A stretch of 64,000 nucleotides of DNA from the NCBI GenBank assembly GCA_046726355.1, contig JBKPAI010000051.1, positions 1,106-65,105 of the forward strand. The letters are read 5' to 3'. The translations under genes and the position numbers were made by a program. Every line of letters begins with the position of its first letter. Within the stretch, counting starts at the first letter, position 1. Source of the stretch: Acidobacteriota bacterium. GTDB taxonomy: Bacteria; Acidobacteriota; Vicinamibacteria; Vicinamibacterales; CAVVIG01. The notes under the pieces were generated by a model. That model searched no databases. It was given only the letters and a program-made list of their open reading frames with translations, and was not told where the DNA came from. Positions 16,024 to 60,677 of the stretch are shown piece after piece.

Positions 16024-16037
16024 TCCGACATTTCGGA
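16024..16037. promoter_or_regulatory. palindrome TCCGA-N4-TCGGA, putative activator binding site
   Basis: TCCGACATTTCGGA lies between two divergent sigma54-like promoters. The same motif occurs at 39704, 46752 and 60664. Confidence 0.65.
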
Positions 16038-16165
16038 GCGTCTCCGGTCGACCGGGGGCGCAATCGATGGAAGACGGCGCGGTCGCATCGCGAAAGGCCC
16101 GGGTTCAGCTCTGCGCCGAACAGACTTGTCGGCCTCGGTGTTGAAACGCCGTTTGTGACCGATGG

Positions 16166-16181
16166 TGGCATGCGGTCTGCC
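16166..16181 (+). promoter_or_regulatory. putative sigma54 -24/-12 promoter of the porin-amidohydrolase-glutaminase block
   Basis: TGGCATGCGGTCTGCC (GG-N10-GC). It overlaps the ORF-track ATG 16162, which favours GTG 16195 as the start. Confidence 0.6.
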
Positions 16182-16194
16182 TTGGTGCGGGCGT

Positions 16195-17724
16195 GTGTGC
16201 CCTTCACACTGCGGGCTTCATGCGGCCGCGGCGGTAGTGATCGTGACCGTTGCTGCACCCGCGGCGGGTCGTTGTCAGACGGCTGGACCCTCGGGCTCCG
16301 ACTCCGCTCCGGCCCTGACCTGCTCGTCGGTGCCAGGTACGCTCGAACACTGCGCGGCGGACACGTCGGCCGGCGTCGCGCTGATCCGGTCGACCGGCGA
16401 GGGACCGTGCCTCCTCGGCAAGACGTGGGGGTACGACGACACGGGGATCTGGGTGTCGGATGGCTGCAGCGCCGCCTTCGTCGCTGGCCAGGCCACCGCC
16501 GCGCCGTCGGCGGAAGGAGAGAAGCACAAGCCCTTCGAACACGTCCCCAACGCCGGCTTCCTGCTGTACGACGGCGATCTGGGTCAGATTTATTTCCGGC
16601 TTTTCAGCTACGCGCGGTACCTGAATCAGCGCACGCTGGATGGCAGCTATACCGACGCGTTCGGCAACACCCATTCCGTGCAGCGGCGCCAGGATGTGCA
16701 GCTGCAGAAGTTCTTCTCGCCCGTCAGCGGGTGGTTCCTCAGACCGAAGTTCCGGTACTACCTGTACGTCTGGTCGTCGAACCCGTCACAGGGCGATCCG
16801 GCCCAGGTCGTGGGGGCGGGCAACTTGAGCTACGCGTTCAATCGCTTCCTGACCGTCGGTGCCGGCATCACGTCGCTGCCCACGGTGCGAAGCACCGAAG
16901 GGCAATTTCCCTACTGGCTCGGCGTCGACGACCGGATGACCGCCGACGAATTCTTCCGAGGGTCGTACACCAACGGCGTCTGGCTCAAGGGTGAGCTCCC
17001 CGCCAAGTTGAAGTACATGGCGATGGTCGCCACGAACCTGAGCATTCTCGGCGTCAGTGCGGCGCAGCTGGACAACCGGATGGACACTCAGTCCTGCATG
17101 CTGCAATGGCTGCCGACGACGGGCGAGTTCGGCCTGTACGGAACGTTCGGCGACTTCGACGACCACGAGAAAGTCGCCACCCGGCTGGGCGTGCACTTCT
17201 CGCACAGCCTCGAGAACAAGCAAAGCCAGCCGGGGGCAAACGCGATCGAGAACACTCAGATCCGCCTCACCGACGGAAGCATCGTCTTCACGCCGGATCT
17301 GTTAGGCCCCGGGATCGCGGTCGACACCGTCGACTACAAGATGACGAGCATCGACGGCGGCATCAAGTACCGCGGACTGTCGCTCGAAGCCGAGTACTAC
17401 CGGCGGCGGCTGACCGACTTCACCGGCGTCAACACCGCCGGCATTCCCGACGTCGCCGACACCGGCTATCAGCTCCAGTCATCAGCGATGCTCGTGCCGA
17501 AGAACCTGCAGGTCTATGTCAGCGGATCGCAGATCTTCGGCCGCTACGGCGACTCGTCCGAGTTACGCGTCGGCGAGAACTGGTACTTCACGGGAGACCG
17601 CGGGCTCCGCATCAACGCCGAGTTCATCCACGTGAACAAGAGCCCGGTCGGCTATACCGCCTATCCGATGCCCGTCGGCGCGAACGGCAACATCGTCCAC
17701 GTCAACCTGGAGATGAACTTCTGA
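16195..17724 (+). CDS. outer-membrane beta-barrel with N-terminal four-Cys DUF3011-like domain
   Basis: A hydrophobic N-terminus is followed by LTCSS...HC...PCLLGKTWGYDDTGIWVSDGCSAAF, then amphipathic beta-strands and a C-terminal Phe (VHVNLEMNF). Start is uncertain (16162 or 16195). Confidence 0.65.
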   Translation: MCPSHCGLHAAAAVVIVTVAAPAAGRCQTAGPSGSDSAPALTCSSVPGTLEHCAADTSAGVALIRSTGEGPCLLGKTWGYDDTGIWVSDGCSAAFVAGQATAAPSAEGEKHKPFEHVPNAGFLLYDGDLGQIYFRLFSYARYLNQRTLDGSYTDAFGNTHSVQRRQDVQLQKFFSPVSGWFLRPKFRYYLYVWSSNPSQGDPAQVVGAGNLSYAFNRFLTVGAGITSLPTVRSTEGQFPYWLGVDDRMTADEFFRGSYTNGVWLKGELPAKLKYMAMVATNLSILGVSAAQLDNRMDTQSCMLQWLPTTGEFGLYGTFGDFDDHEKVATRLGVHFSHSLENKQSQPGANAIENTQIRLTDGSIVFTPDLLGPGIAVDTVDYKMTSIDGGIKYRGLSLEAEYYRRRLTDFTGVNTAGIPDVADTGYQLQSSAMLVPKNLQVYVSGSQIFGRYGDSSELRVGENWYFTGDRGLRINAEFIHVNKSPVGYTAYPMPVGANGNIVHVNLEMNF

Positions 17725-18824
17725 TGATCGTGCCCGCTCGCCCCACGATGATCCGCGCGGTGGCGGCCGCTCTCGCACTTGTCGGCGCTGGAGCGCCTGC
17801 CGGCCGGGCCGCGCCGCAGCCGCGCGACGCGTACGAGATCCACGACACGCACTTTCATCTGACCAACTACATCCAGGAAGGCACGAGCATCCACGACTTC
17901 CTCAAGATCATGGGAACGAAGGTCGGCCGTGTCGCGCTGTTCGGCATTCCGCTGCAGCAGCAGTGGTCGTACGGCAACAGCGGAGACTTCGCGCCAACCT
18001 ACTACCTGCAGACCGACGCGCCCCTCTACTACTACTCGTTCACCGACGCGTTCATCGCGATGGCGTACAAATCGCTGGCGCCGGCGGAGCAGGCCCGGTT
18101 CGATCCGATGATCACCGGGTTCAACCCGGCCGACATGTACGCCGCCGATCACGTCCGGCGCGTGCTCACGACGTTCCCCGGCGTGTTCTCCGGGATCGGC
18201 GAGTTCACCATCCACAAGGAGTTCGTCTCGTCGAAGATCGCCGGCGAAACCGCCAGCCTCACGAATCCCGCGCTCGATCGCCTCCTCGACTTCGCCGGCG
18301 AGGTCGGCCTCGTCGCGCTGCTGCACAGCGACGTCGACATGCCGTTCCCGAAGCCGGGCCAGGAACCGTATCAGGTGGCGCAGCTGCGCGACCTGTTCCT
18401 GCGTCACCCGAAGACCACGATTATCTGGGCGCACATCGGCCTCGGCCGGGTCGTCCGGCCGGTCGCCGACCAGATCGGCATCATCGAGCGCGCCCTCGCG
18501 AATCCCGCTCTCGCGCACGTCAACGTCGATCTCTCCTGGGACGAGACCGCGAAGTACATCGTCGCCGGGCCGGAATCGATCGCGCTGGTCGCCGGTCTCA
18601 TCAATCGGTATCCAGACCGGTTCCTGTTCGGAACGGACGAAGTCGCGCCGGCCACACAGACGGCGTACCTCAAGGTCTACACGCAGTACGCGCCGCTGCT
18701 CGCGAAGCTGACGCCCGAGGCGAGCGAAAACCTGCGCCGGAAGAACTACGAGCGCCTCTTCGACGAGGCCAGACGCAGGGTCAGGGCCTGGGAGCGGGCG
18801 CACGTCAAGGAGACATCGCAATGA
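17724..18824 (+). CDS. exported metal-dependent amidohydrolase (Amidohydro_2-like TIM barrel)
   Basis: Motifs DTHFH, GIGE, LLHSD, WAHIG, FLFGTD. Signal-like N-terminus MIRAVAAALALVGAGAPAGRA. ATG 17724 overlaps the upstream TGA. Confidence 0.8.
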   Translation: MIVPARPTMIRAVAAALALVGAGAPAGRAAPQPRDAYEIHDTHFHLTNYIQEGTSIHDFLKIMGTKVGRVALFGIPLQQQWSYGNSGDFAPTYYLQTDAPLYYYSFTDAFIAMAYKSLAPAEQARFDPMITGFNPADMYAADHVRRVLTTFPGVFSGIGEFTIHKEFVSSKIAGETASLTNPALDRLLDFAGEVGLVALLHSDVDMPFPKPGQEPYQVAQLRDLFLRHPKTTIIWAHIGLGRVVRPVADQIGIIERALANPALAHVNVDLSWDETAKYIVAGPESIALVAGLINRYPDRFLFGTDEVAPATQTAYLKVYTQYAPLLAKLTPEASENLRRKNYERLFDEARRRVRAWERAHVKETSQ

Positions 18825-20056
18825 AAGACAGTCATCTGTCGGCGCGATGGTGGAGGGTCGCGCCGCTCCTGATCGGTCTGGCTGCCACCGGCGCGGCGAG
18901 CGCCCGAGCGCAGACGCCGCAGGCGGAGAAGCCGGCCCTCGACATCTACGGGTTTGCGCAGGTCGACGCGATCGCCGATTTCAAGCAGAACAATCCCGAT
19001 TGGTACGACGTCAGCCGCCCGTCGAGGCTGCCTGCGTTCGACAATCAGTTCGGCAAAGACGGTCGTTTCTATTTGAGCCCGCGCCAGAGCCGCTTCGGCG
19101 TTCGTGGTGCCCTCCCGACGTCGGCTGGCGACGTCAAGGCCACGTTCGAGTTCGACATGTTCGGCGTCGGCCGCGACGCCGGCCTCACGACAATCCGCCT
19201 GCGCCACGCCTGGGGGCAGTGGAAGCGGGTCGGCGCAGGACAAACGAACAGCACGTTCATGGATGCCGACGTGTTGCCGAACTCGCTCGACTATTGGGGC
19301 CCGAACGGCGCGCTGTTCTTCCGGAACGTGCAGCTGTTCTACGAGCCGTTCAACGACGGGACCGCGAACGCGCGGCTGGCGATCGAGGCGCCGGGCGCGA
19401 GCGGCGACGCGGGCGTTCTCGCCGATCGCATCGAACTGCAGAACGTCCGGCCGCGCTTTCCGATGCCGGATTTCACGGGCCACTATCGTCTCGGCCAGAA
19501 GTGGGGACACGTCCAGATCAGTGGCGCTCTCCGCTACATCGCCTATGACGACACGCTGACGACCGATCAGTTCGATCTGAGCGGACACGTGTGGGGATGG
19601 GGCTTCAGCGGCAGCTCGAACGTGAAAGCCGGTCCCGACGACGTGATTCGCGCTCAGCTGGTCTACGGCGAGGGCATCGAGAACTACTTCAACGACGCGC
19701 CAATCGACGTCGGTCTCAAGCGGAATCCCGGCAACGCGGTCACGCCTGTCGTCGGCGAGGCGCTGCCCGCTTTTGGCCTCGTCCTGTTCGTCGACCACGC
19801 GTGGAGCAAGCGTTTCACGACGGCGGCCGGGTACTCGCGGGTCGACATCACCAACAGCGAGGGCCAGGCGCCGAACGCGTACAAGAACGGGCAGTACGCC
19901 CTCGTCAACCTGCTGTGCACGCCGGCCGCCAACGTGATGCTCGGCGGCGAGTTCCAATGGACCAGGCGGCAGAATTTCTCAGACGGTTTTGGCGTCGACG
20001 ATTTCCGATTGCAGTTCTCACTGAAATACAACTTCGCGACCAGAGTAGGAGGCTAG
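18821..20056 (+). CDS. DcaP-like trimeric outer-membrane porin
   Basis: Signal peptide, IYGFAQVD, RQSRFG, FEFDMFG, RLRHAW, GQTNSTFMD, PDFTGHY, and C-terminal RLQFSLKYNF. Confidence 0.78.
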   Translation: MKDSHLSARWWRVAPLLIGLAATGAASARAQTPQAEKPALDIYGFAQVDAIADFKQNNPDWYDVSRPSRLPAFDNQFGKDGRFYLSPRQSRFGVRGALPTSAGDVKATFEFDMFGVGRDAGLTTIRLRHAWGQWKRVGAGQTNSTFMDADVLPNSLDYWGPNGALFFRNVQLFYEPFNDGTANARLAIEAPGASGDAGVLADRIELQNVRPRFPMPDFTGHYRLGQKWGHVQISGALRYIAYDDTLTTDQFDLSGHVWGWGFSGSSNVKAGPDDVIRAQLVYGEGIENYFNDAPIDVGLKRNPGNAVTPVVGEALPAFGLVLFVDHAWSKRFTTAAGYSRVDITNSEGQAPNAYKNGQYALVNLLCTPAANVMLGGEFQWTRRQNFSDGFGVDDFRLQFSLKYNFATRVGG

Positions 20057-20058
20057 CG

Positions 20059-21111
20059 ATGGATCCAAGCCACAGAATCGATCGGCGGCTATGGCTGCTC
20101 GTCGGCGTCGTCGCGGCCGTGTCGCCGATGTTCCTCCTGGCGCAGGACGACGCGCAGTCGGTCGTGAACGCGGCGTTTGCCAAGTACAGGACGCTGAACG
20201 AAGGCAAGAACGCCGACTACATTCCGGCCCTCGCGAAGGTGGATCCGAACCTGTTCGGCATCGCGCTGGTGACGACCGACGGCAAGGCCTTCACGTCGGG
20301 CGACATCACCACGCCGGTGTCGATCCAGTCGATCTCGAAAGTCTTCACGATGGCTCAGGTGATCCAGGAGCAGGGACCCGAGGCGATCGAGAAGCGCATC
20401 GGCGTCGACGCCACCGGCATGCGGTTCAACTCGATTATCGCCGTGGAGGCGGTGCGCGGCGTCGTGGCAACCGGCGCGCCGGAGATCAACCCGCTCGTCA
20501 ATCCAGGCGCGATCGCCGCGACGAGCATGGTGAAAGGTGCCGGCGCCGACGAGGTCTGGGCCAAGATTATCGGTTTCCACAACGATTGCGCCGGCCGCTC
20601 GCTGAGCGTTCTTCAGGACGTGTACAAGTCGGAGTCCGACACGAACCAGCGCAACCAGGCGATCGGCGCACTGATGTTCGCCTACGGGTATATCAAGAGC
20701 GACTGGCAGCAGGCGGTGGATCTCTACACGCGCCAGTGCTCGATCGGCGTCAACGCGAAAGACCTGGCGACGATGGCGGCGACGCTTGCGGCGATGGGAC
20801 GCAATCCTGTGACAGGGAAACAGGTGATCGACGCGAAGTACGTGCCTGGCGTGCTCGCGGTGATGGCCACCGCCGGGCTGTACGACGACTCGGGTAAATG
20901 GCTGTTCCACACCGGCTTGCCGGCCAAGAGCGGCGTCGGCGGCGGCATCATCGCGGTGTCGCCCGGCAAGTTCGGCATCGCCGTCGTGTCGCCGCCGCTC
21001 GACGACGCGGGGAACAGCGTGCGCGCGCAAAAGGCGATTGCGGATATCTCGAACAAGTTGAACGGCAACCCGTTGAGTGCGCGCCCGGGCAGCCGTCCGG
21101 CGACGCAATGA
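20059..21111 (+). CDS. glsA: glutaminase A with N-terminal signal peptide
   Basis: Motifs GKNADYIPAL, IQSISKVF (SxxK), NPLVNPGAI, YTRQCS, GLYDDSG, PAKSGVGGG, SPPLDDAGNS. N-terminus MDPSHRIDRRLWLLVGVVAAVSPMFLLA-QD. An SD (AGGAGG) precedes ATG 20059. Confidence 0.92.
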   Translation: MDPSHRIDRRLWLLVGVVAAVSPMFLLAQDDAQSVVNAAFAKYRTLNEGKNADYIPALAKVDPNLFGIALVTTDGKAFTSGDITTPVSIQSISKVFTMAQVIQEQGPEAIEKRIGVDATGMRFNSIIAVEAVRGVVATGAPEINPLVNPGAIAATSMVKGAGADEVWAKIIGFHNDCAGRSLSVLQDVYKSESDTNQRNQAIGALMFAYGYIKSDWQQAVDLYTRQCSIGVNAKDLATMAATLAAMGRNPVTGKQVIDAKYVPGVLAVMATAGLYDDSGKWLFHTGLPAKSGVGGGIIAVSPGKFGIAVVSPPLDDAGNSVRAQKAIADISNKLNGNPLSARPGSRPATQ

Positions 21112-22732
21112 GGCGATCGGTCTTCCGGATCGGGCTTGCCGGCGCGCTCGCGATCACGCTGCTGGCTCCTCTGCGCGTCGGCGCACAGAGTGACGCGAGC
21201 ACGCCCGGCACGAAGGCGGCCGCCGCGCAGGCCGAGGCGCGTAAAGACGCTCTCGGCCGCGATACGCCTCGAGGAACGCTGCTGGGATTCATGCGCGCGG
21301 CGCGCGCGCAGAACGACGAAGCGGCCGCGGCGTACCTGAATACGCGCGCGCACGGTGAGGCGGCCAAACAACTGGCGCGTCAACTGTATGTCGTCCTCGA
21401 CACGCGGCTCCCCGCCCGGCTCGCCGACGTGAGCGACTCTCCGGACGGAGGGCTGGCGAACCCGTTGCAACCCGACGTCGACGTCCTAGGCACCATCCAG
21501 ACCGCCAGCGGTCCACTCAAGATCCTCGTCGAACAGGTCAACCGGGGTGCGTCGGGACGCATCTGGCTGTTCTCGCGTCGCACGCTCGAGGTCATTCCCG
21601 ACGTGTACGACGAGGTCGATCTGGTCTCGCTCGATCGACATCTGCCGCGCCTGTTGACGAAATACCGGATCGCGGGCATCCAGCTGTTCGACTGGATCGT
21701 TCTTTTCATCATCATTCCCGTCTGCTACCGCCTGATCGGGCTGCTGGGGAAGCTGGTTGGTCCGCTGATCGCCGTCTGGCGCCGCCGACACGGGCATGCG
21801 CCGGCCGCTCGCGTGAAGGCCGTGCCGGGGTTCGTCCGGTTGCTGCTGCTGGCGATTGTCATTCGTTGGCTTCTCACCGGCGTCGATCTTTCGTTGATCG
21901 AACGGCAGTTCTGGTTGGCCACCACAGGGATGTTCGCGATCGTTGCCGCGGTCTGGATGATGTTCCTCGCGAATGCGCGCGGCGAGGAGTATCTGCGGCG
22001 GCGACTGGCGGGTGGGGGCCACGCCGAAATCGCGGCGCCGCTGCGGCTGGTGCGCCGCATGGCCGATGTGGTCGTCGCCACGGCAGGGGTGATCGTGACC
22101 CTGCACTTCTTCGGCGTCGACCCGACGGCGGCGCTTGCCGGACTGGGCATCGGCGGCATTGCGGTGGCGCTGGCGGCACAGAAAACGCTCGAGAACGTGA
22201 TCGGCGGCCTCTCGATCATTTTCGACAAGGCCGTGCGCGTCGGCGATTTCCTGAAGCTGAACGACACGTTCGGCACGGTCGATTACATCGGCCTGCGTTC
22301 CACGCGCATCCGGACGCTCGATCGGACGATCCTCAGCTTGCCCAACGGCCAGATCGCCAATCTCGGTATCGAGACCCTCTCGTCGCGCGACAAGTTCTGG
22401 TTCCATCATTTCGTCGGCGTCCGCTACCAGACGACGGCGCGCCAGCTCACCACGATCATCGACGGCATGCGCAGCCGCCTCGCCAGCCACCCGTTCGTCG
22501 ACGTCGAGTCGGTCCGCGTGCGTTTCGTCCGCTTTGGTTCGTTCTCGCTGGACATCGAGCTGTTCGCGTACATCCTGGCCGCCGACTGGCTGCAGTTCCT
22601 GGAGATTCAGCAGGAACTGCTGCTCGATCTCATGGAGATCGTCGAACGCTCCGGCGCCGCGCTCGCGTATCCGTCACAAACGTTGTATTTCGCCAGTTCG
22701 AATCCGCTCGCGGCCCTTACCGGAGGTGAAAA

Positions 22733-22736
<4 letters not shown>
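21108..22736 (+). CDS. MscS-family mechanosensitive channel with periplasmic N-terminal domain
   Basis: Signal peptide, LGRDTPRGT periplasmic motif, several TM helices, ALAGLGIGGIAVALAAQKTLENVIGG, VGDF, IGLRSTRIRT, PN. Confidence 0.88.
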
Positions 22737-25486
<2,750 letters not shown>

Positions 25487-51000: not shown

Positions 51001-51241
51001 GTTCGCCTTCATCCTCGGCGTCGTCCCGCTGCTCACGGCATCGGGGGCCGGCGCCGAAGCGCGCAAAGTGATGGGCATGGCCGTCTTTTCCGGCATGCTC
51101 ATCGCGACCATCCTCGGCGTCTGTCTGATTCCAATGTTGTTCGTGGCCGTCGAGAAGATCATCGGCGGAGCAAGGCAGCACGCGCCGGCCCCTGCCGCGC
51201 CATCCGCTCTGGCGGCGCAGCCCGGCAGCGGAATCCACTGA
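48062..51241 (+). CDS. HAE1-family RND efflux permease (AcrB/MexB-like)
   Basis: Motifs FFVNRPI, QYPDI, GIVVDDAIVVVE (proton-relay Asp pair), AKNAILIVEF, RFRPILMT. Confidence 0.95.
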   Translation: MARFFVNRPIVAIVLSIILVLLGVVAMRGLPIAQYPDIVPPMIQVTTTFIGASATDVEASVATPLEQQINGVEQGIYMKSTNANDGTLTLKVSFEVGSNLDMDNVLTQNRVSQAMPLMPQPVKQYGVTVKKSLAFPLMVISIKSPHGSYDSSFLSNYSTININDAIARIPGVGQVTLYGGSDYAMRVWLRPDRIGRLGLTVPDIANAIAQQNQLSPAGQIGGPPAAPATEYTYTVRTQGRLLNEDEFGDIILRTAADGSQVRLKDVARLELGTMLYNAIGRHDSQPAAVIAIYQVPGSNALAVANQIKATLADLSKRFPPDMNYLVSLDTTLPVSEGINEIVHTLFEAVALVLIVVFVFLQNWRATLIPLMTVPVSLVGAFIFFPLLGFSINVLSLLGLVLAIGIVVDDAIVVVEAVMHHIEHGLSPKDATIKAMDEVSGPVVAIGLILSAVFVPVGFMGGITGRLYQQFAITIALSVLLSVVNALTLSPALSAMLLKAPSGKRTLLTPFYNAFNKVFGVTTDVYVSFAGILVRKMVRSMAFIAVLIVAIVVLLRHIPGGFVPEEDQGFLLVNAVLPDAASLERTDAVMRKAEAVLKANEAVEGYNTISGFSLLTGAYSSNMGFFFVQLKPWEERGRTHTAAVVTQALNGAFAQEIREGAVVAFGPPAIPGLGTGAGFTFELQDRSGGSPEYLAAQAQSFIEAARKRPEIARINTLYRASVPQIYADIDRSKVTKAGVQLADVNTTLGALLGSSYVNDFNKFGRVYKVYVQAEPEFRRDASQLGLFFVRNAAAGMVPLDTFVATRPSAGPEFTNRFNLFRTAEITGVPAAGFSSAQALDALEATAREVLPPDVSYDWADMSYQERKAPGVAVVFGLGVLLVFLILSAQYESWGLPFSVLLGTPFAAFGAYFGLWSARQFSESYVNNVFAQIGLIMLVGLAAKNAILIVEFAKMQHDAGVGLVDSALTAAKLRFRPILMTAFAFILGVVPLLTASGAGAEARKVMGMAVFSGMLIATILGVCLIPMLFVAVEKIIGGARQHAPAPAAPSALAAQPGSGIH

Positions 51242-51242
51242 G

Positions 51243-52664
51243 ATGGCGGCCATCCCTCGGCCCCCGCGCGTGGTCACGGTCGCCGTCACGTCGCTGTGGC
51301 TCAGCGGCTGTGCCGTCGGGCCCAACTACGCACGGCCGCAGGTGGCGAGTCCGCCGGAGTATCGATTCGCCGAGGGCATGGCCCAGGCGCAGTCGCTGGC
51401 CGACCTGCCGTGGTTCCAGGTTTTCGACGACCCGGCGCTGCAGGCGCTCATCCGCGAAGCACTCGCGAACAATCTCGATGTCCGCGCAGCGGTGGCGCGC
51501 GTCGAGGAGGCGCGCGCCCGCGCCGGAATCGCGACGTCGTTCCTGTATCCGCAGGTCGACGCCACCGCGAGCTACGCGCTGCGGCAGGCGTCGAACACAT
51601 CGTCGCAGACCGGCACGCAACAGACGACCGACGACACGACGCATCAAAGCGGCGTCTATGGCTTTCAGCTCTCCTGGGAGCTCGATCTGTTCGGGCGGCT
51701 GCGGCGCGAGCGGGAATCTGCGCTGGCGGTGGCGCTCGCGAGCGAGCAGGCTCGACGCGGCGTTCTCGTCACGCTGGTCGGAGACGTCGCGACGGATTAC
51801 TTCCTGCTGCGCGAGCTCGACCTGCAGCTCGATATCGCACGGGAGACGCTGCGACTCAACGACGACACGGTGACCTACTTCCGGAACCGGCTCCAGGGTG
51901 GCGTGTCGAACCGCCTCGAGCTCGATCGCATCCTGGCGAACCGATCGCAGACGGCGGCGACGATTCCGGACCTCGAACAGCAGATCGGTCTCGTCGAGAA
52001 CGCGCTGTCGCTGCTCCTCGGCCGGCCGCCCTCGTCGATCACGCGCGAACGTCTCGATCCGCGTGCCGCGCTCCCGCCGCCGATCCCTCCCGGATTGCCC
52101 GCGTCGCTCCTCGAGCGGCGGCCCGATGTGGTCGAAGCGGAGCAGCTGCTCGTGGCCGCGAACGCCGACATCGGGGCGGCGAAGGCGCTGTTCTTTCCGA
52201 CGATCGGCCTGACCGGATTTGCGGGCGGCGTGAGCGGCGATCTCACGCGGTTCCTTGGCGGCGACGGCGCGGTGTGGTCGGTGGGCGCCGGGCTGCTGCA
52301 GCCGGTATTTCAGGCCGGTCGGCTGCGGCGGAATCTCGACGCGATGCGCGCGCGCTACGCCGCGGCGCTCGCCGGGTATCAGAAGGCCGCGCTGAACGGC
52401 TATCGCGAGGTCGCCAATACGCTGCTGACGATTCAGAAGCTGGCGGTGGTGCGCGTCGAGCGGGAGGCGGCGGTCGTCGCCCTGCAGGACGCTACGGACC
52501 TGTCGCGATCCCGCTACGACTCGGGGCTCGCATCATATATCGAGATACTGACGGCCGACGAGCGACTGTTCGAGCAGCAGCTCCTGCTGGCGCAGACGCG
52601 GGGAGCAGAACTGCGGGCGCGCGCGGAGCTCTACCGGACGCTCGGTGGCGGATGGCAGCCATAA
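51243..52664 (+). CDS. outer membrane factor (NodT/OprM-like lipoprotein)
   Basis: Lipobox LSGC-AVGPNY, SWELDLFGRLR, LLERRPDV, LYRTLGGGW. Confidence 0.93.
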   Translation: MAAIPRPPRVVTVAVTSLWLSGCAVGPNYARPQVASPPEYRFAEGMAQAQSLADLPWFQVFDDPALQALIREALANNLDVRAAVARVEEARARAGIATSFLYPQVDATASYALRQASNTSSQTGTQQTTDDTTHQSGVYGFQLSWELDLFGRLRRERESALAVALASEQARRGVLVTLVGDVATDYFLLRELDLQLDIARETLRLNDDTVTYFRNRLQGGVSNRLELDRILANRSQTAATIPDLEQQIGLVENALSLLLGRPPSSITRERLDPRAALPPPIPPGLPASLLERRPDVVEAEQLLVAANADIGAAKALFFPTIGLTGFAGGVSGDLTRFLGGDGAVWSVGAGLLQPVFQAGRLRRNLDAMRARYAAALAGYQKAALNGYREVANTLLTIQKLAVVRVEREAAVVALQDATDLSRSRYDSGLASYIEILTADERLFEQQLLLAQTRGAELRARAELYRTLGGGWQP

Positions 52665-52678
52665 CCGAAGGTCGGACG

Positions 52679-53461
52679 ATGTCGAAGCTCAAACGGAAGA
52701 AGTTCGAGAAGGAATTAATACGGTTGCAAGGCAGGCTCTGCGTCCTCCAGGAATGGGTCAAAGCCAAAGGACTCCGCGTCATCGTCATCTTCGAAGGGCG
52801 CGACGCGGCGGGGAAGGGAGGAACGATCAAGGCGATCACGGAGCGTGTGAGCCCGCGGGTGTTTCGAGCGATCGCGCTGCCGGCGCCGTCGGAGCGCGAG
52901 AAGTCTCAGATGTACATCCAGCGCTATCTCCAGCACTTTCCGGCGGCCGGCGAAGTCGTCATCTTCGATCGCAGCTGGTACAACCGCGCTGGTGTCGAGC
53001 CGGTGATGGGGTTCTGCACGAAGGAACAGTACAAACAGTTCCTCGAACTGGTCCCCGAGTTCGAGCGACACCTGGTCAACAGCGGCATCTACCTGATCAA
53101 GTTCTGGCTCGAGGTCGGCAACAAAGAGCAGGAACGCCGGTTCAGGGCGCGCATCGACGATCCGGTACGGCAGTGGAAGCTGAGCCTGATGGATCTGCCG
53201 TCGCGCGCGAAATGGTACGACTACTCGCGCGCGCGCGACGCGATGCTCAAGGCGACCGACACGCGCGTCGCGCCCTGGTACATCGTCCGATCCGACGACA
53301 AGAAGCGCGCGCGCCTCAATTGCATCGCCCATTTGCTCAAACTCATTCCCCACAAGAGGCTCAAGCGTCCGAGGGTGAAGCTTCCCGAGCGATCGCGAAA
53401 GCGCGCGTACAACGACGAGGCGTCGCTGGCGCGGCGCCGGTTCGTGCCCGAGACCTATTGA
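52679..53461 (+). CDS. ppk2: polyphosphate kinase 2 (single domain)
   Basis: Motifs FEGRDAAGKGG (Walker A), FDRSWYNR, RQWKLS, DKKRARLN. Start is ATG 52679. Confidence 0.93.
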   Translation: MSKLKRKKFEKELIRLQGRLCVLQEWVKAKGLRVIVIFEGRDAAGKGGTIKAITERVSPRVFRAIALPAPSEREKSQMYIQRYLQHFPAAGEVVIFDRSWYNRAGVEPVMGFCTKEQYKQFLELVPEFERHLVNSGIYLIKFWLEVGNKEQERRFRARIDDPVRQWKLSLMDLPSRAKWYDYSRARDAMLKATDTRVAPWYIVRSDDKKRARLNCIAHLLKLIPHKRLKRPRVKLPERSRKRAYNDEASLARRRFVPETY

Positions 53462-53486
53462 ACCGTTCGCAGCGGAGACAGATCGC

Positions 53487-53975
53487 ATGGCAACCGTAAC
53501 CGTTCTGAAATTCTCGACCCCCGAGGGCGCGCAGAATGCGCTGGCCCTGGTGCAACGCCTGAAGAAGAAACATCTGATCAAGTTGCTCGATGCCGCGATC
53601 GTGTCGTGGCCGACGGGCGAAAGCGGTCCCACGACTCGTCAGCTGGTGAACCTGGTCAGGACCGGCGCCCTGACCGGGATGTTCTGGGGCATGCTCTTCG
53701 GGCTGATTTTCGTGACGCCGCTGTTTGGCATGGTGCTCGGCTCGGCCGTCGGTGCACTCGGCGGGACGTTTCACGACTATGGTATCGACGACGACTTCAT
53801 CAGGCAGGTCCGCGGCGCGGTCACCGCCGGCACGTCGGCGCTGTTCCTGATGACGAGCGACGCGGTGATGGATCGCGTCGTCGAGGGAATGAAGGGCGTG
53901 AAGTTCGAAGTCATCGCCACCAACTTGTCGGCCGACCAGGAGCGAAAATTGCGTGAAGCGTTCGCCGCGGCGTAA
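53487..53975 (+). CDS. DUF1269-family membrane protein
   Basis: Motif LIKLLDAAIV, a glycine-zipper TM pair (GALTGMFWGMLFGL...GSAVGALGG), DYGIDDDFI, GTSALF, TNLS. Confidence 0.82.
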   Translation: MATVTVLKFSTPEGAQNALALVQRLKKKHLIKLLDAAIVSWPTGESGPTTRQLVNLVRTGALTGMFWGMLFGLIFVTPLFGMVLGSAVGALGGTFHDYGIDDDFIRQVRGAVTAGTSALFLMTSDAVMDRVVEGMKGVKFEVIATNLSADQERKLREAFAAA

Positions 53976-55707
53976 TCGCGCTCGGCGCTTCGTCTGTTTC
54001 GCAGCCGGCGCGCTGGCGAGCCTCGCTGTGGGCGCGCACGCGGCGTTTGCCGCGCAAACGCCCACAGCAGCGCTGGGTGAGTCGCAGGGATCCCCCCCGA
54101 CTACGATCGGGGCGGAACGCGCGGGGCGGCCGGCGACGCTCATTTTCTTCAACCGTCCCATCGTCACGCTCAGAGCGCGCGTGCTCGGACGGGAGCCCGA
54201 CGAACGCGCGGCCGGCGCGAAACATCGGCTCGACGATCTCGTCGCAGCGCAGGTCACGGGACCGGTCGCGTCGCGACCGGTCGACGGCGGCGTGCTCGTC
54301 AACGTCGGTTCGCGCAGCGTGCTGGCGCTGACGGCGGCCGATGTCGACGACCTGTCCGGTGAAACCGTCGAGGACGTCGCTGAGCGCACGGTCGCCCGCC
54401 TGCGGCAGGCGCTCGGCGAGGCGGCGGAGGCGCATGCGCCGAGGGTACTTCTGCGGTCGGCCACCGTTGCTGCGCTCGCCGTCGCGGTTGGCCTCCTGCT
54501 GATGGCCGCCGTTGCGCGCGCGCGCCGCGTGGCGACCGCGAGGCTGATCCCGATTGCGGAAGAGACGATTGCGAGATCCGGCATCGCCGACCGCGATTTG
54601 CTGCGCGCCTCGCGGCTGCTGGAGGTCGAACGCCGCGTCGTCACGACGGCGGCCGTATCGGCGCACGCCGTCATTCTTTACAGTGTCCTCACGTTCGTGC
54701 TTCGGCGCTTCCCGTACACGCGTCCGTGGGGAGAGTCGATGCGGGCGTTCCTGATCGGGACCGTCGAGCAGCTCGCCGCCGGCGTGCTGAGGGCCCTTCC
54801 GGGATTGTTCGCGGCGGCAGTCATTTTCCTGGCGGCGCGCTGCCTGATTCGTCTGCTCGGCCTCTGGTTCGCCGCGATCGAACAAGGGCGGATCGCGCCG
54901 CGCTGGATCTATCCTGAAACCACGCTGCCCACGCGGCGGTTGTCGTCGGCGCTGGTGTGGATGTTTGCGCTGGTGGCGGCATATCCGTATCTGCCGGGAA
55001 GCCAGACCGAGGGGTTCAAAGGCCTCAGCGTCTTTTTGGGCCTCATCGTGACGTTCGGGTCGAGCGGACTGGTCAACCAGATCATGAGCGGCTTCATGGT
55101 CACCTACTCGCGCGCGGTACGGCTCGGCGACTTCGTCCGCATCGGCGACGTCGAGGGCACGGTCACGCACCTGGGCGTACTGTCCGCCAAGGTGAGAACA
55201 CCGCGGAACGAGGAGGTCACGATTCCGAACGCGGTCATCGTCTCGCAGACCACGATCGATTACTCGCGCTTGGCCGATCAAGGCGTGTTCACGCCCTCGT
55301 CGGTGACCATCGGCTACGACGCGCCGTGGCGGCAGGTGCAATCGCTCCTGCTGCTGGCGGCCGAGCGGACGCCGGGTATCCGCCGCGAGCCGAAGCCGCT
55401 CGTGCTCCAGGAGGCGCTCGAGGATTTCTACGTCAAGTACACGCTCCTGGTGTGCCTCGAGCGCCAGGAGCTGCGGCCGTACACGCTGCACACGCTGCAC
55501 GCGCTCATCCAGGATCTGTTCAACGAGTACGGCGTGCAGATCATGTCGCCGAACTACGTCATGGACCCGGCGGCGCCGAAGATCGTGGCCAAAGAACACT
55601 GGTTCGCGGCGCCCGCTCGAGGGGAACCGGTCAGCGGAACCACACGAGTCCGAACTTCAGGTTCCACCGGCCACTCTGATTCGGTCCCCACCACAGCTCC
55701 GGCTTGA
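53953..55707 (+). CDS. MscS-family mechanosensitive channel (second copy)
   Basis: Signal-like N-terminus, a periplasmic domain, YPYLPGS...FKGLSVFLG, LGDFVRIGDVEGTV, TIPN, TIGYD, GVQIMSP. Confidence 0.87.
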   Translation: MKRSPRRNRARRFVCFAAGALASLAVGAHAAFAAQTPTAALGESQGSPPTTIGAERAGRPATLIFFNRPIVTLRARVLGREPDERAAGAKHRLDDLVAAQVTGPVASRPVDGGVLVNVGSRSVLALTAADVDDLSGETVEDVAERTVARLRQALGEAAEAHAPRVLLRSATVAALAVAVGLLLMAAVARARRVATARLIPIAEETIARSGIADRDLLRASRLLEVERRVVTTAAVSAHAVILYSVLTFVLRRFPYTRPWGESMRAFLIGTVEQLAAGVLRALPGLFAAAVIFLAARCLIRLLGLWFAAIEQGRIAPRWIYPETTLPTRRLSSALVWMFALVAAYPYLPGSQTEGFKGLSVFLGLIVTFGSSGLVNQIMSGFMVTYSRAVRLGDFVRIGDVEGTVTHLGVLSAKVRTPRNEEVTIPNAVIVSQTTIDYSRLADQGVFTPSSVTIGYDAPWRQVQSLLLLAAERTPGIRREPKPLVLQEALEDFYVKYTLLVCLERQELRPYTLHTLHALIQDLFNEYGVQIMSPNYVMDPAAPKIVAKEHWFAAPARGEPVSGTTRVRTSGSTGHSDSVPTTAPA

Positions 55708-56464: not shown

Positions 56465-57232
56465 CTACGGTTGAACCGTCACCGCGGCGTTCAGCGAGAA
56501 CTGCAGCCGCGTTTCAGCCGGGACCTTCAGATGTTCCGTGCCCTGGCTGGAAACGATGGCTCCGGTCGCGCCGCCGGCGACCGCGCCGATCGCTGCGCCG
56601 GTACCGCCGCCAGCGATCCCACCGACGATGGCGCCAAGCCCGGCGCCTCCGGCAACCTTTCGCGTCGTCTTCTTCCCTTCGCCCGAGCCCTTCGACTCGA
56701 CGGGCGTCGTGACGATCTCGTACTTGCGGCCGCCGAAGGCAATCGAGTTCGCCTTCAGCGTGATTTTGTCGGCGCCTTTCATCTTCCCGGCCTGCTCGAC
56801 CTTCGCCGCCTGCAGCACGACGGCCGCGCCGCGCGGGACGATGACCTTGCCGCCCATCATCACCGGATCGTCGAGGAGCGACTTGAACGTCATCCCTGCT
56901 TGAGCGGCATCGACTTCAATCGTCTGCGTCAGGCGCACGCTCAGCAGCGTGCCGGCGGGCAGGGTCACGGGCGCGGGCGCTTTCGACGGATCGGGCGCCG
57001 GCGCCGGCTGCGCCTTGCGTGGCGAGAACTCCACTGCGCTCACGCCATCCACGGGGAACTCGGCGATCGATCCGTTGTCCAGCAGCAGGCGGACGATCTT
57101 GACGTCCGCGCTCATGAACGCTCCGGTGACGACTTTGCCCGATCGCAGCGTCACCTTGTCAGCCGAGAGGGTCGCGCCGGCGACGACCATCGTTGCCATC
57201 AGGGTCGAGAAGAACAGCGAGTGCTTTCGCAT
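56465..57232 (-). CDS. exported hypothetical protein with glycine zipper
   Basis: Signal peptide, a small N-terminal domain (DKVTLRSG), a Pro/Ala linker, LPAGTLLSVRL beta domain, GAGLGAIVGGIAGGGTGAAIGA. Confidence 0.72.
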   Translation of the reverse strand: MRKHSLFFSTLMATMVVAGATLSADKVTLRSGKVVTGAFMSADVKIVRLLLDNGSIAEFPVDGVSAVEFSPRKAQPAPAPDPSKAPAPVTLPAGTLLSVRLTQTIEVDAAQAGMTFKSLLDDPVMMGGKVIVPRGAAVVLQAAKVEQAGKMKGADKITLKANSIAFGGRKYEIVTTPVESKGSGEGKKTTRKVAGGAGLGAIVGGIAGGGTGAAIGAVAGGATGAIVSSQGTEHLKVPAETRLQFSLNAAVTVQP

Positions 57233-57255
57233 GGGTCACACCTTCGTGTCGCGTG

Positions 57256-57798
57256 TCATTTCGCGAGCGGCAGCGCCGACGCAATCTGGAGGTCGAGCAG
57301 CAGCAGGATCTGGTTCTCCACCTGGATGAACCGCGCCGCCGTCTTCGGCGAGATGACCGACTTGAGTCGATCGTAGAAGCGTGCTTTCAGCGCGTTCCTC
57401 CGCGATTCGAGGTCGAGCGCGCCGCGCGCGAGCTTGTCGGCGACCGGATCGGTCAGCTGCTCGTAGTTGACCGCGTACTCCTTGATCAGCGCTATCCGGT
57501 CGTCGTTGATCTTCGCGAGCTCGTTCTCATACTCGCGGTAGACGGGCCAGAATTTCTCGTCTTCGGCCTCGGTGAACTGCATCACCTCGGTGATGATGGC
57601 GACTTTCTGGCTGCGGAGGTCGGAGCGAAGCAGCTCCACGTAGGCACGCAGGTTCGTTTCGCGGGTTTCGTCCGAGGCTGTGGTCGGCGTCGCCTGCGCG
57701 GGGCCGGGCTTCGTCGCCTGCACGCCGGCAGCGGCGTGCGCGCACGCCAGCACGGCCAGCGTGACGACGCCGATTTGCAAGTGGTTCACACGCGTCAT
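57256..57798 (-). CDS. exported alpha-helical hypothetical protein (Spy/CpxP-like character)
   Basis: Signal peptide, MQFTEAEDEKFWPVYREYE, ARFIQVE, charged helical composition. Confidence 0.68.
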   Translation of the reverse strand: MTRVNHLQIGVVTLAVLACAHAAAGVQATKPGPAQATPTTASDETRETNLRAYVELLRSDLRSQKVAIITEVMQFTEAEDEKFWPVYREYENELAKINDDRIALIKEYAVNYEQLTDPVADKLARGALDLESRRNALKARFYDRLKSVISPKTAARFIQVENQILLLLDLQIASALPLAK

Positions 57799-57826
57799 GA
57801 CGTGACTCCCTTTCGGTTATCGATCC

Positions 57827-60088
57827 CTACCGGCGTCGGCCGCCGCCTCGCATGGAGCGCCCGGCTCCGCTCGGGCGGTAGCTCGAGGCAGCTCCTGATG
57901 ACTGCGCGCGGCTCGCGTCGCGCGTGCGCTGTGCGCCCTCCGCCCGCGCCGCCGAATCTCGATTGAGCTCCCCCGTCGCCGGCTGCTGGACTGAATTCCA
58001 GCCGCCGTTGTCGTACTTTTGCCAGCTCCCGTCCTGCTTCCGGTACACGTTCCCGTCGCGGCCGGCATACACGTCGCCCGTAGCGGTCCGTGCGACGCCG
58101 GACGTGCCCTGCGGTCCGGTGCGCGTGACGGCGCCTCGGCCGCCGCTGCCCTGCGTGACGCGCGTCGTCGTACCCGTAAGGTTGCTGGTCACGCGGGACG
58201 TGGTCGCCCACCGATCGCCGCGCTGGACGCCACTCTGGCCCCAACTGCCGTACACATTCGAGCCCTGTCTTGTCGCCGCGTACGTTCCCGTGCGCGGGTT
58301 GTAGGCCTGCGCGGCGCCGCGCGCCCCGTACGGCCCGTACGCCGCAGCGCCGCGCGCATACGTGCCCGTCCGCGGGTTGTAGCGCGCGCCGATGCCGGCG
58401 CCGCCGTACGGGCCGTATGCGAACGCGCCGCGGCTGTAGGCGCCGGTCCACGGGTTGTACGCGGCGCGATACCCGTAGGTCGGGTAGTACGGGAAATAGG
58501 CCGGGTAGAACCCGCCGTAATACACGTACGGCGGGTAGTACCAGCCCGTGCCCCAGACCGCGCACCCCCACGCGATCATCATGCCGGTGTAGGCCGCCGT
58601 CGCCGCGAACACGACGTCATCGTCGTGATCTTCCACAACGGTGACGTACGTCACGTTGTGAGCTGGCGAGCTGACCGGAATCTCGTAAATCTCCTTGGGT
58701 ACCGATCCGGTGACTTCCCACGGGCCGCCGGGGCCTCGCGCCATGAACCACACGCCCTGGAAGCACATGTAGTACAGGTCGCCGACTTTGATGATGTCCT
58801 TGTCGGTGTTCACCGCGCGCGAAACGGTCGTCTGTTCGATCGGCTGGAACTGAGGATCGCCCTGATACTGGACGTCGGGCGCGTTCACCTGCTTCTTGGT
58901 GACCCGCGCGGTCTGGGGAATCTGCGCCAGCAGCACCGCTTCAACGGCTTCGTCCGTTCCGGGAACCGATGCGAGCACGCGCGATCGCTCGTGCGAACGC
59001 GGAATCTTCTTGAAATCGTCGGGCAGCGACGGCGTGGCGAACGTCCACGGACCGGTGAAATCGGGTGCCGAGAACCATCGTCCCGAGACGAGGTAGTACA
59101 CCGGGCCGTTCTTGCCGAGCCTGAACACGTCGCTCTCGGTGTTGCTCACCCAGAGCAGGCGCGTGCCGCTCACGACCAGGTAATTCGGAGCGCCGGTCAG
59201 CAGGATCAGTTCCGCGGGTTTCATGCTGACGAACACTTTGGGGACGGTGGCCGGCGATTTGGGTCGGCCGGGCAACGCCGCCTTGACCTCCTTCCAGTTG
59301 TCGTCGGCCGGAAGCGTCGCGAAACTGTCGGGCAGCTTGGCGGCCGGCATCCACGGCCCTTCAATCCTCGTTGCCGTCAGCCAACTGTCGCCGTCCCTGA
59401 GGAAGAGTTTCTTCGTCGGTTCGTGTTCGAACAGATCCCAGTTCGTGTTGACGGCGAACCTGAGATCGTTTTCCTTGATCGGACTCCACACCGGGTCGCC
59501 GTCCAGGTTGACGAGGACCGACGCGGCCGTGGCGTAAAAGATGACTGGCGGGTCGGCCTTTACTCCTTCGACGTTCTTCGGAATGATGTTCGCCTTGTCG
59601 AGCCGGGCCAGCACGCGGTCGAGCCCGATGATTCCCTCGTCGGGCACGAGCCGCTCGATTCGGGCGACGACGTCGCGAAGCTGGTCCTTCGGCAAGTCGG
59701 CGAAGTGAGTCTCGGTCAGCGCGAGGCGCGTGAAGTTCACGAGCCGTTCGTCGACCGCCACCGAAGTGTCCGCCTCGATCTTCACGGTTCCGAGAGCGGG
59801 TTTGGCGGCGCCCTTCGCCGTGTACGCCACCGCGGCGTAGGCGACCATGTGGCGCTGCCCGTCCCAGCTGGCCACCTGCGGCTGAAAGACGCGAATCGCA
59901 CCGCCGCTCGGCGTCGCGTAGTCGCGGGGCCATCCACCGTCGCCCTCCCGGATTGCCGCCGCCGCTTTGGCTGAAGACGGCGGCAATCCGGCTTGCGCGC
60001 TCACCGCCGGCGCCAGCGTCGGGAGGAACGCCGCACCGGCGGCCGCGAAGGCCGCTACCGCGCGCGAAACGCTTCGCTTGACTCTCAC
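57827..60088 (-). CDS. large exported repeat protein of unknown function
   Basis: Signal peptide after GTG 60088 (the ORF track starts at 60148), three ~105-aa NT..D...W...GPW repeats, a Tyr/Pro-rich segment, three 26-aa YNPxTG repeats and a Gly/Arg-rich tail. Confidence 0.75.
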   Translation of the reverse strand: MRVKRSVSRAVAAFAAAGAAFLPTLAPAVSAQAGLPPSSAKAAAAIREGDGGWPRDYATPSGGAIRVFQPQVASWDGQRHMVAYAAVAYTAKGAAKPALGTVKIEADTSVAVDERLVNFTRLALTETHFADLPKDQLRDVVARIERLVPDEGIIGLDRVLARLDKANIIPKNVEGVKADPPVIFYATAASVLVNLDGDPVWSPIKENDLRFAVNTNWDLFEHEPTKKLFLRDGDSWLTATRIEGPWMPAAKLPDSFATLPADDNWKEVKAALPGRPKSPATVPKVFVSMKPAELILLTGAPNYLVVSGTRLLWVSNTESDVFRLGKNGPVYYLVSGRWFSAPDFTGPWTFATPSLPDDFKKIPRSHERSRVLASVPGTDEAVEAVLLAQIPQTARVTKKQVNAPDVQYQGDPQFQPIEQTTVSRAVNTDKDIIKVGDLYYMCFQGVWFMARGPGGPWEVTGSVPKEIYEIPVSSPAHNVTYVTVVEDHDDDVVFAATAAYTGMMIAWGCAVWGTGWYYPPYVYYGGFYPAYFPYYPTYGYRAAYNPWTGAYSRGAFAYGPYGGAGIGARYNPRTGTYARGAAAYGPYGARGAAQAYNPRTGTYAATRQGSNVYGSWGQSGVQRGDRWATTSRVTSNLTGTTTRVTQGSGGRGAVTRTGPQGTSGVARTATGDVYAGRDGNVYRKQDGSWQKYDNGGWNSVQQPATGELNRDSAARAEGAQRTRDASRAQSSGAASSYRPSGAGRSMRGGGRRR

Positions 60089-60122
60089 CTTGGGCCTCCT
60101 GTGCAACGCAGGCCGTCGGCGA

Positions 60123-60464
60123 TCATTGCAGGGAGGCTCGAACTTCATCCATAAAGTCGAGTCCGCGCGTTTCGTGATCGAGCGCGAATTCGATGCGCGG
60201 CGGCTGAACCGCGCCTTCGATCAGCGAGACCAGCTGCGAGAACGTATCGGATCGCAGCCGGCGCCGCAGGTCCTCCTCGGTCTGCCATTCCTCGACATAG
60301 CGGACCGCACCGCGCTTTCCGATGTCGGTCAACACCGAACAGCCGATGCATCCGCGCGTGGTCCGCGTGTCGGCGGCGAGCGAGTGCAGCGCCAGGGTGA
60401 TTGGACGCGTTTGGCCGAGCGGCACGAACCACTCGATGGTCATCCGCACACACGTCGAAAGCAT
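60123..60464 (-). CDS. small ABM-like (dimeric alpha/beta barrel) protein
   Basis: TRTTRGCIGCSV...RYVEEWQTEEDL pattern. Start is ATG 60464 (alternative 60509). Confidence 0.62.
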   Translation of the reverse strand: MLSTCVRMTIEWFVPLGQTRPITLALHSLAADTRTTRGCIGCSVLTDIGKRGAVRYVEEWQTEEDLRRRLRSDTFSQLVSLIEGAVQPPRIEFALDHETRGLDFMDEVRASLQ

Positions 60465-60531
60465 TGTGACACCCAACTTTGTCCGGGCTCCCCATCTGGA
60501 ACGCGACATGCTCGAACGATGCGGGTGGACG

Positions 60532-60547
60532 AGCAGGCTGCATGCCA
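60532..60547 (-). promoter_or_regulatory. putative sigma54 -24/-12 promoter of the ABM/exported-protein block
   Basis: Minus strand reads TGGCATGCAGCCTGCT (GG-N10-GC). Confidence 0.68.
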
Positions 60548-60663
60548 TGGATCGTCGGCGTTGCGGAAACGGGCAACAGCCGTTGTTACGAAGCTCTGAC
60601 GCCAATCGCCGCGAACGTTCGCGGCAGATTGGGACGCCGCGAACTCCGTCTGGCAGGAGGCGC

Positions 60664-60677
60664 TCCGAAATCTCGGA
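60664..60677. promoter_or_regulatory. palindrome TCCGA-N4-TCGGA, putative activator binding site
   Basis: TCCGAAATCTCGGA lies about 125 bp upstream of the 60.5-kb promoter. A related perfect palindrome, GCCGCGAACGTTCGCGGC, is at 60608-60625. Confidence 0.62.

Follow-up and report, generated by a model that had tools for sequence, protein, structure and literature searches.

We analysed a 64,000-nucleotide stretch of DNA from an uncultured Vicinamibacterales acidobacterium (the window; positions 1106-65105 of the 77-kb contig C51, with window numbering used throughout), in which the palindrome TCCGA-N4-TCGGA recurs next to sigma-54-like promoters and large operons. Vicinamibacterales are abundant, mostly uncultured soil Acidobacteriota. 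Four exact copies are present in the 64-kb window, starting at 16024, 39704, 46752 and 60664; the sequences and coordinates listed in the original prediction, an earlier note that proposed the palindrome as a new activator-binding site, were all verified, its positions 39703 and 46751 being the starts of two identical 16-mers, CTCCGACAGTTCGGAG. The form of the dyad, a 5+5 inverted repeat with a 4-bp spacer, suits a helix-turn-helix (HTH) dimer. The sites, the -24/-12 elements from a sigma-54 scan, the second (companion) dyads from an offset scan, the operons and the candidate activator gene are as follows, with upstream activating sequence abbreviated as UAS:

16024-16037, no strand: primary dyad TCCGACATTTCGGA, intergenic, putative UAS of operon 16330-25486, 128 bp from its edge to the -24 T
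16043-16056, no strand: companion dyad TCCGGTCGACCGGG, 7/10 match, 19 bp from the primary dyad (offset scan)
16166-16180, plus: -24/-12 element TGGCATGCGGTCTGC (sigma-54 scan)
15935-15949, minus: weak, uncertain -24/-12 candidate AGGCGTGCCGTTTGC with three mismatches, facing the DUF4136 gene 15325-15885
39704-39717, no strand: primary dyad TCCGACAGTTCGGA, putative UAS of the minus-strand operon starting at 39575
39589-39603, minus: -24/-12 element TGGCAGCGGGGCTGC (sigma-54 scan)
46752-46765, no strand: primary dyad TCCGACAGTTCGGA, between two divergent sigma-54-like promoters
46771-46784, no strand: companion dyad TCCGGTCCGGCAGA, 7/10 match, 19 bp from the primary dyad (offset scan)
46838-46852, plus: -24/-12 element TGGCACGCCGGCTGC of the RND efflux operon (sigma-54 scan)
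46640-46654, minus: -24/-12 element TGGCACGCGACGTGC of the 187-amino-acid secreted protein and ATP synthase operon (sigma-54 scan)
60664-60677, no strand: primary dyad TCCGAAATCTCGGA, putative UAS of the minus-strand ABM operon, invariant in a seven-genome alignment
60645-60658, no strand: companion dyad TCCGTCTGGCAGGA, 7/10 match, 19 bp off on the promoter-proximal side, its outer CTCC...GGAG invariant in the seven genomes
60533-60547, minus: -24/-12 element TGGCATGCAGCCTGC, TGGCAyGC-N3-CTGCTC being conserved in the seven genomes
16330-25486, plus: operon with predicted promoter at 16166 (gene calls, Pfam, NCBIfam)
25874-39575, minus: ten co-directional genes with predicted promoter at 39603 (Pfam, NCBIfam)
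39722-46626, minus: 187-amino-acid signal-peptide protein, then an accessory F-type ATP synthase operon, with predicted promoter at 46654
46925-55707, plus: RND operon with predicted promoter at 46838
56465-60443, minus: ABM operon with predicted promoter at 60547
63491-64000, minus: 3' part (AAA+ lid, HTH_8) of the gene for a 677-amino-acid PAS-GAF-AAA+-HTH_8 activator, the gene extending to 65524

The frequency and placement of the palindrome were compared with chance in the window and in the whole genome (8.05 Mb, 65% G+C, 231 contigs), for which genes were called with a home-made codon-bias caller (6208 genes, 85.4% coding). In 100 dinucleotide-preserving shuffles of the window the mean was 0.21 palindromes with a maximum of 2, and none of the shuffles contained four. 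Genome-wide the palindrome occurs 14 times, while the same half-sites with other spacers from N0 to N12 have 7-26 copies each; it is therefore not over-represented as a word. Its placement is strongly biased: nine of the 14 copies are intergenic, relative to 14.7% intergenic DNA by our own gene calls (P=3 × 10−5), and five of the 14 lie on the 77-kb contig C51 (P=1.5 × 10−7). Among 60 permutations of the half-site, TCCGA ranks first in intergenic copies (9/14; permutation mean, 1.85 intergenic copies) and has by far the highest intergenic fraction. The original prediction had set a frequent and randomly placed word against an operator; a count of 14, biased towards intergenic DNA and towards C51, describes a different kind of element.

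The intergenic copies were then related to candidate sigma-54 promoters, which were scanned for as TGGCAC-N5-TTGC with GG and GC fixed and up to two other mismatches, in intergenic DNA only and facing a gene start within 250 bp (324 candidates genome-wide, most with two mismatches). The centre of seven of the nine intergenic palindromes lies 60-135 bp upstream of the -24 T of a correctly oriented element, although only 3.6% of intergenic bases fall 30-220 bp upstream of a candidate (P for at least seven of nine, 2.7 × 10−9), and on C51 the palindrome accompanies seven of the eight sigma-54-like candidates. The -24/-12 elements that had been described about 80-140 bp from the sites are present at all four sites in the window, with gaps of 72-128 bp from the edge of the site; at 39704, which begins 4 bp beyond the atpC stop codon, the gap to the -24 T is 100 bp. 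Two of the sites had also been placed between divergent promoters; this holds for 46752, which has divergent -24/-12 elements on both sides, and is uncertain for 16024, whose minus-strand promoter is only the three-mismatch candidate. A sixth site on C51, at C51:69735 (CCCGATATTTCGGA, one mismatch), was detected through its promoter. The genome has one rpoN gene.

A second level of organization was revealed by scoring the match to a second dyad at every offset from 19 sites, ten in this genome and nine in relatives. At 12 of the 19 sites a companion dyad of at least 7/10 lies at exactly 19 bp on one side or the other, compared with 0-1 site for each other offset from 10 to 45, the orthologous sites among the 19 not being independent of one another; in this genome five of the ten sites have such a companion, including those at 16024, 46752 and 60664 in the window (companions at 16043, 46771 and 60645), and 39704 has none. 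These companions are distinct from the CGA-N4-TCG words at 60608-60625 and about 46704-46717, for which that role had been suggested and neither of which was confirmed: the word at 60608-60625 is a perfect palindrome that is specific to the window and lies in an unconserved stretch of the seven-genome alignment. When the tandem composite was searched for in the genome, the only intergenic hits with promoters were four on C51 and one on contig C213, and no regulon members were obtained outside these two contigs; the regulon therefore appears to be small and mostly local.

We next examined conservation at 79 loci that encode relatives of the activator, eight of which have near-full-length orthologues of 60-75% identity (L006-L011, L021 and L047). 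At six of these eight, the palindrome centre lies 111-127 bp upstream of the -24 T of a TGGCAYGC-N3-CTGC element that precedes an ABM-type orthologue. In an alignment of the window with its relatives (seven genomes), the DNA upstream of the ABM gene contains only three invariant blocks, the palindrome TCCGAnATnTCGGAG, the companion CTCC-N8-GGAG and the promoter TGGCAyGC-N3-CTGCTC, and the surrounding DNA is unconserved; the consensus palindrome across relatives is TCCGAnATnTCGGA. Because the palindrome-promoter module is conserved in front of ABM, the site at 60664 is assigned to the minus-strand ABM operon, and DUF481, whose gene begins 11 bp to the right of the site, was rejected as the target. 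The eighth locus, L011, has the module with one mismatch together with the companion, and L021 has a one-mismatch copy immediately upstream of its activator gene. At all eight loci ABM and the activator are found together, and the arrangement at 16024 also precedes orthologues of the pair of genes for a 464-amino-acid protein and an amidohydrolase in three genomes (L087, L089 and L091).

Beyond these orthologous loci, conservation of the regulon was assessed at 20 loci around motif copies in seven other genomes belonging to four other families of the order. They hold 21 palindromes, 18 of them intergenic; of the 18, 15 have a sigma-54-like element within 230 bp, ten have the companion at 19 bp on either side, and 14 flank genes whose best match here is a gene on C51 or C213. 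The flanking genes include those for the 464-amino-acid protein and the amidohydrolase, a 753-amino-acid protein, ABM, two DUF4136 lipoproteins, a GH63-like hydrolase, the C213 beta-barrel protein, an MscS channel and the activator itself. At two loci (L090:4001 in G038 and L101:4001 in G006) the palindrome precedes homologues of C139_31425 (about 468 amino acids) with no sigma-54-like element at two or fewer mismatches; these sites could be further regulon members with weaker promoters. At L094:3380 (G079) and L098:4001 (G136) it lies inside orthologous genes of 372-392 amino acids, which looks like a coding coincidence maintained by conservation of the protein and not like a site. Among 12 genomes of the same family, 11 lack a strong activator orthologue (best E from 1 × 10−76 to 1 × 10−108), the exception, G101, has an orthologue at 1.5 × 10−159 and no motif copy, and ten of the 12 lack the motif, whereas genomes of other families have both motif and orthologue; the island is therefore patchily distributed and, judging from these comparisons, may be horizontally mobile.

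Taken together, these observations bear on whether the palindrome is regulatory at all. That it is a non-regulatory repeat, whether REP-like (repetitive extragenic palindrome), a small hairpin or terminator, or chance, with coincidental promoter proximity, would fit a genomic count no greater than for other spacer lengths and the copy that begins 4 bp beyond the atpC stop codon, a place that would suit a hairpin. Some copies are indeed chance: the intergenic ones at C61:19083 and C175:22312 have no oriented sigma-54 element within 220 bp and no companion dyad, and these two, together with the five coding copies, are probably chance occurrences. Yet the stem spans only 5-6 bp and lacks a T-run, the majority of copies precede promoters and do not follow genes, and the intergenic bias, the clustering on C51, the 19-bp companion, the promoter pairing and the conservation across families are, in combination, incompatible with chance. 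A REP/BIME-like repeat (BIME, bacterial interspersed mosaic element) was ruled out because the copies number only 14, lie mostly upstream of promoters and have nothing in common in their flanks apart from the companion dyad. We thus consider a non-regulatory origin very improbable, and the genomic patterns argue strongly that the palindrome is a sigma-54 enhancer, which we regard as highly likely.

The best candidate for the protein that binds this enhancer is encoded on C51, at 63491-65524 (minus). The activator has a FixL-like PAS domain (residues 40-158), a GAF domain (E=5 × 10−7 when that region was searched alone), the sigma-54-interaction AAA+ domain PF00158 (232 bits) and HTH_8, and among about 33 full-length bacterial enhancer-binding proteins (bEBPs; 42 PF00158 matches) in the genome it is the only one on C51. 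The name 'FhlA-like activator' given to it earlier is apt for the AAA+-HTH part (residues 331-674) and inapt in the sense of an FhlA equivalog, since the NCBIfam FhlA model scored 380.6 bits against a cut-off of 830 and covered residues 331-674 only. The eight orthologue loci contain ten palindromes in 157 kb, compared with two in 1278 kb at the 71 other bEBP loci, an approximately 40-fold higher density. We also sampled 151 genomes of the order, tallied by hand, for the pattern TCCGANATNTCGGA and for strong orthologues of the activator (best match E≤1 × 10−150). Of the TCCGANATNTCGGA copies, 23 are in the 13 genomes that have a strong orthologue and 38 in the other 137; eight of the 13 carry at least one copy, and all four genomes with four copies possess the orthologue, while a reversed control pattern gave five copies in total. 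The sites cluster beside the activator gene in four genomes (G105, G038, G057 and G006): four copies fall within about 45 kb of it in G105, copies lie 78 and 704 bp upstream of it in G057, and one is 45 bp away in G006. The closest match to the HTH of the activator (C-terminal 75 residues) elsewhere in its own genome reaches only 36% identity (E=0.003). Orthologues with sites at their loci share the segment WRVRGpGGAAERLGLKPTTLESRMARLGI nearly unchanged; no sites accompany bEBPs that are further removed and read ...TTLETRMAKLG....

Another protein of the cluster might instead bind what would still be a real site at these sigma-54 promoters, with the bEBP acting from another place or in solution. 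Dimers with a GerE-type HTH recognize short inverted repeats, and in E. coli the regulators of acid-resistance genes include members of the NarL, LuxR and AraC families. The main candidate here is a NarL/LuxR-type response regulator (66494-67108, minus), the partner of a PAS-HisKA_3 kinase (61860-63434), and a further candidate is a small AraC-type protein (65508-65882); all three genes adjoin the bEBP gene, and one palindrome lies 219 bp upstream of the LuxR-type gene. Across the eight orthologous loci, however, the bEBP is present in all eight, the kinase in four and the AraC-type gene in one, and a true orthologue of the LuxR-type regulator (at least 70% identity) occurs in two only, three having no relative of it; L006 is without a LuxR-type relative and yet retains the site, the companion dyad and the promoter. 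The tandem dyads and their position 60-135 bp upstream of -24/-12 elements are, moreover, the typical layout of a bEBP enhancer. Binding by one of these other regulators is accordingly unlikely.

Several observations weigh against assigning the palindrome to the activator. Some LuxR-type regulator is found near the sites at five of the eight orthologous loci, and two of the eight, L021 and L011, have no exact copy. Five of the 13 strong-orthologue genomes (G043, G061, G074, G081 and G101) lack TCCGANATNTCGGA, a form with an NATN spacer that misses spacer variants such as the CAGT spacers present in the window. One-mismatch variants show no intergenic enrichment in the genome scan (51/337, 15%, the background level), so weaker regulon members would be invisible to such a scan, and the only credible site gained by allowing one mismatch is C51:69735, which was spotted through its promoter and companion dyad. 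The related genomes are non-independent samples, and both the gene calling and the sigma-54 search used loose criteria of our own making. On balance, the promoter pairing, the conservation, the co-occurrence with the orthologue and the unmatched HTH support the original proposal that the palindrome is the operator of the activator at 63491, and from this comparative evidence we estimate a probability of roughly 0.7 that the neighbouring activator binds it. In G074, one of the genomes without TCCGANATNTCGGA, three tandem activator paralogues of 46-49% identity are encoded (C13:1000552-1015026); they may constitute a sister subfamily with another specificity.

The proposed arrangement agrees with the NtrC/NifA/FhlA class in its tandem dyad-symmetric sites 60-135 bp upstream of a GG-N10-GC promoter and in an activator that combines a AAA+ sigma-54-interaction domain with a Fis-type HTH at the C terminus and whose gene lies among those of its targets. 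According to a published study (PMC6615313), enhancer-binding proteins (EBPs) bind UASs mostly 100-250 bp upstream, usually at multiple sites, most of their target operons are co-localized with the EBP gene, and 65% of the EBPs of Clostridiales control one operon and the remainder two to six. Relative to these one to six operons, the at least eight promoters predicted here represent a larger set, with somewhat shorter UAS distances. The same study gives TGT-N10-12-ACA as the UAS of FhlA and NifA (PMC6615313), a type not matched by the palindrome TCCGAnATnTCGGA; on this basis the specificity is distinct from that of FhlA/NifA and would add a UAS specificity apart from the TGT-N10-ACA class. Our literature search found no published account of the motif or of sigma-54 regulons in Vicinamibacteria or Acidobacteria, although Table S3 and the Fig. 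3 motifs of PMC6615313 could hold a similar one, and it found no published description of any Vicinamibacterales regulon. Since the enhancer mechanism of bEBPs is textbook knowledge, the novelty lies in the organism and the content of the regulon, not in the principle.

We propose that TCCGA-N4-TCGGA would be the high-affinity half of a tandem enhancer whose weaker second dyad lies 19 bp away, centre to centre. The PAS-GAF-AAA+-HTH_8 protein (63491-65524, minus) would occupy this enhancer through its Fis-type HTH, assemble into the active oligomer at the two dyads and loop across 60-135 bp to RNA polymerase-sigma-54 at TGGCAY-N5-YTGC, where its ATP hydrolysis would open the promoter. The predicted regulon comprises at least eight promoters, five in the window, two further on C51 and one on C213, and a ninth, on C139, is probable; between them they would drive almost all of the window between 16 and 60 kb, a block of about 45 kb.

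The genes of this block were annotated with Pfam and NCBIfam. The operon at 16330-25486 encodes the 464-amino-acid protein (DUF3011-like N terminus), the amidohydrolase, a DcaP-type porin, glutaminase A (420 bits, above the NCBIfam equivalog cut-off of 395), an MscS-type channel and a GH63/MGH1-like hydrolase. The ten genes at 25874-39575, which are probably one transcription unit given gaps of no more than 106 bp, include those for an alginate-export-like porin, a SpeF-type ornithine decarboxylase (914 bits, above the subfamily cut-off of 794), a PotE antiporter (664 bits, above the equivalog cut-off of 409), a solute-binding protein and an arginine decarboxylase of AdiA-like type, which at 997 bits falls short of the cut-off of 1167; the remaining five encode arginine deiminase, ornithine carbamoyltransferase, a carbamate-kinase-like AA_kinase, an amino-acid permease and a 199-amino-acid protein. 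In the ATP synthase operon, subunits a (ATP-synt_A) and beta were confirmed, and gene order, size and translation suggest the order a, c, b, delta, alpha, gamma, beta, epsilon. A second, housekeeping-like F-type ATP synthase operon is present on contig C231 (beta subunits 67% identical), and the copy in the window is therefore considered accessory. This operon (39722-46052, minus) is complete and is flanked by the identical 16-mers, each a putative enhancer for a flanking promoter or its own. The RND operon encodes a membrane-fusion protein, an AcrB-type RND pump, an outer-membrane factor, PPK2, DUF1269 and an MscS-type channel, and its first gene probably starts at an ATG near 46899. The ABM operon encodes the ABM monooxygenase-like protein (60123-60443), the 753-amino-acid protein, for which a protein-cluster look-up returned unnamed clusters only and no known family, a 180-amino-acid protein and a Gly-zipper protein. 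Targets beyond the window are a 183-amino-acid protein with DUF4136 and a CusF-like protein with a PAP2 phosphatase, both on C51, and an outer-membrane beta-barrel protein on C213.

By predicted function, most targets use up protons, liberate ammonia, yield ATP through substrate-level phosphorylation, transport protons or alter the envelope. This content is consistent with acid stress and no less so with limited oxygen or energy, since the arginine deiminase pathway and an ATPase able to run in reverse would serve under either condition; the second F-type ATPase is possibly run in reverse to maintain proton-motive force. The best solved relatives of the activator PAS domain are FixL proteins and a multi-sensor kinase, and the histidine in the FixL segment PEPDRSRHDSY, which we take to be the haem-ligand region, aligns with a histidine of the activator PAS. 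As rough odds for the signal we give 40% to oxygen or redox, 35% to pH and 25% to amino acids or other signals. That the activator is a haem-PAS (FixL-like) or a pH or amino-acid sensor which switches on a sigma-54 survival island of about 45 kb through one enhancer motif is a tentative reading, somewhat more likely to be wrong than right.

Partial counterparts of such a system exist. RocR of Bacillus subtilis is a PAS-containing bEBP that governs arginine and ornithine catabolism, and it resembles the activator by domains and by target type, both being PAS-bearing sigma-54 activators with arginine- or ornithine-degrading targets. In contrast to RocR, the activator described here adds a GAF domain, and its predicted targets are the arginine deiminase pathway and decarboxylase/antiporter pairs, not the arginase route, as well as ATP synthase, an RND pump and envelope proteins. 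The enterobacterial acid-resistance systems (SpeF-PotE, AdiA-AdiC and the glutaminase YbaS/GlsA) and the arginine deiminase pathway draw on the same families of enzymes and antiporters. Those systems are sigma-70-dependent and are regulated by CadC, AdiY, GadE, EvgA or ArgR/ANR-type proteins, whereas the genes here form one island whose sigma-54-like promoters have an enhancer in common. In its size and coherence the regulon is unusual, it belongs to a phylum about which little is known, and it would place amino-acid pathways that consume protons and produce ammonia under one activator together with an additional ATP synthase and envelope remodelling; this suggests how these bacteria cope with acid or low-oxygen spells in soil. 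It is also testable: it has one activator, a 14-bp motif whose companion lies at a fixed 19 bp, and some eight promoters. A survival island under one sensor, if true, would be the first defined stress regulon in Vicinamibacteria and would place an ATP synthase operon and classical acid-resistance modules under sigma-54 control.

A carbohydrate block occupies 3-15171 (minus), downstream of the DUF4136 gene and the weak promoter candidate at 15949, and may or may not belong to the regulon; it encodes a fused RpiB-transaldolase-PGI protein (>907 amino acids, running off the window), transketolase, phosphoketolase, class-I FBP aldolase, a histidine-phosphatase-family protein, phosphoglucomutase, an isoamylase-like debranching enzyme and glycogen phosphorylase. 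At the ABM promoter, a sigma-54-like word, TGGAACGCGACATGC (60497-60511, plus), faces the promoter head-on, towards the palindrome and DUF481, and its counterpart is kept in L006 and L007; it could be a real convergent promoter or a conserved element of the 5' untranslated region of the ABM mRNA. At the promoters 39589-39603 (minus) and 46640-46654 (minus), exactly 13 nt separate the -12 GC from the ATG of a signal-peptide protein, and the transcripts are therefore predicted to be leaderless or nearly so, in which case the Shine-Dalgarno-like GGAAGG near 46626 would fall outside the mRNA.

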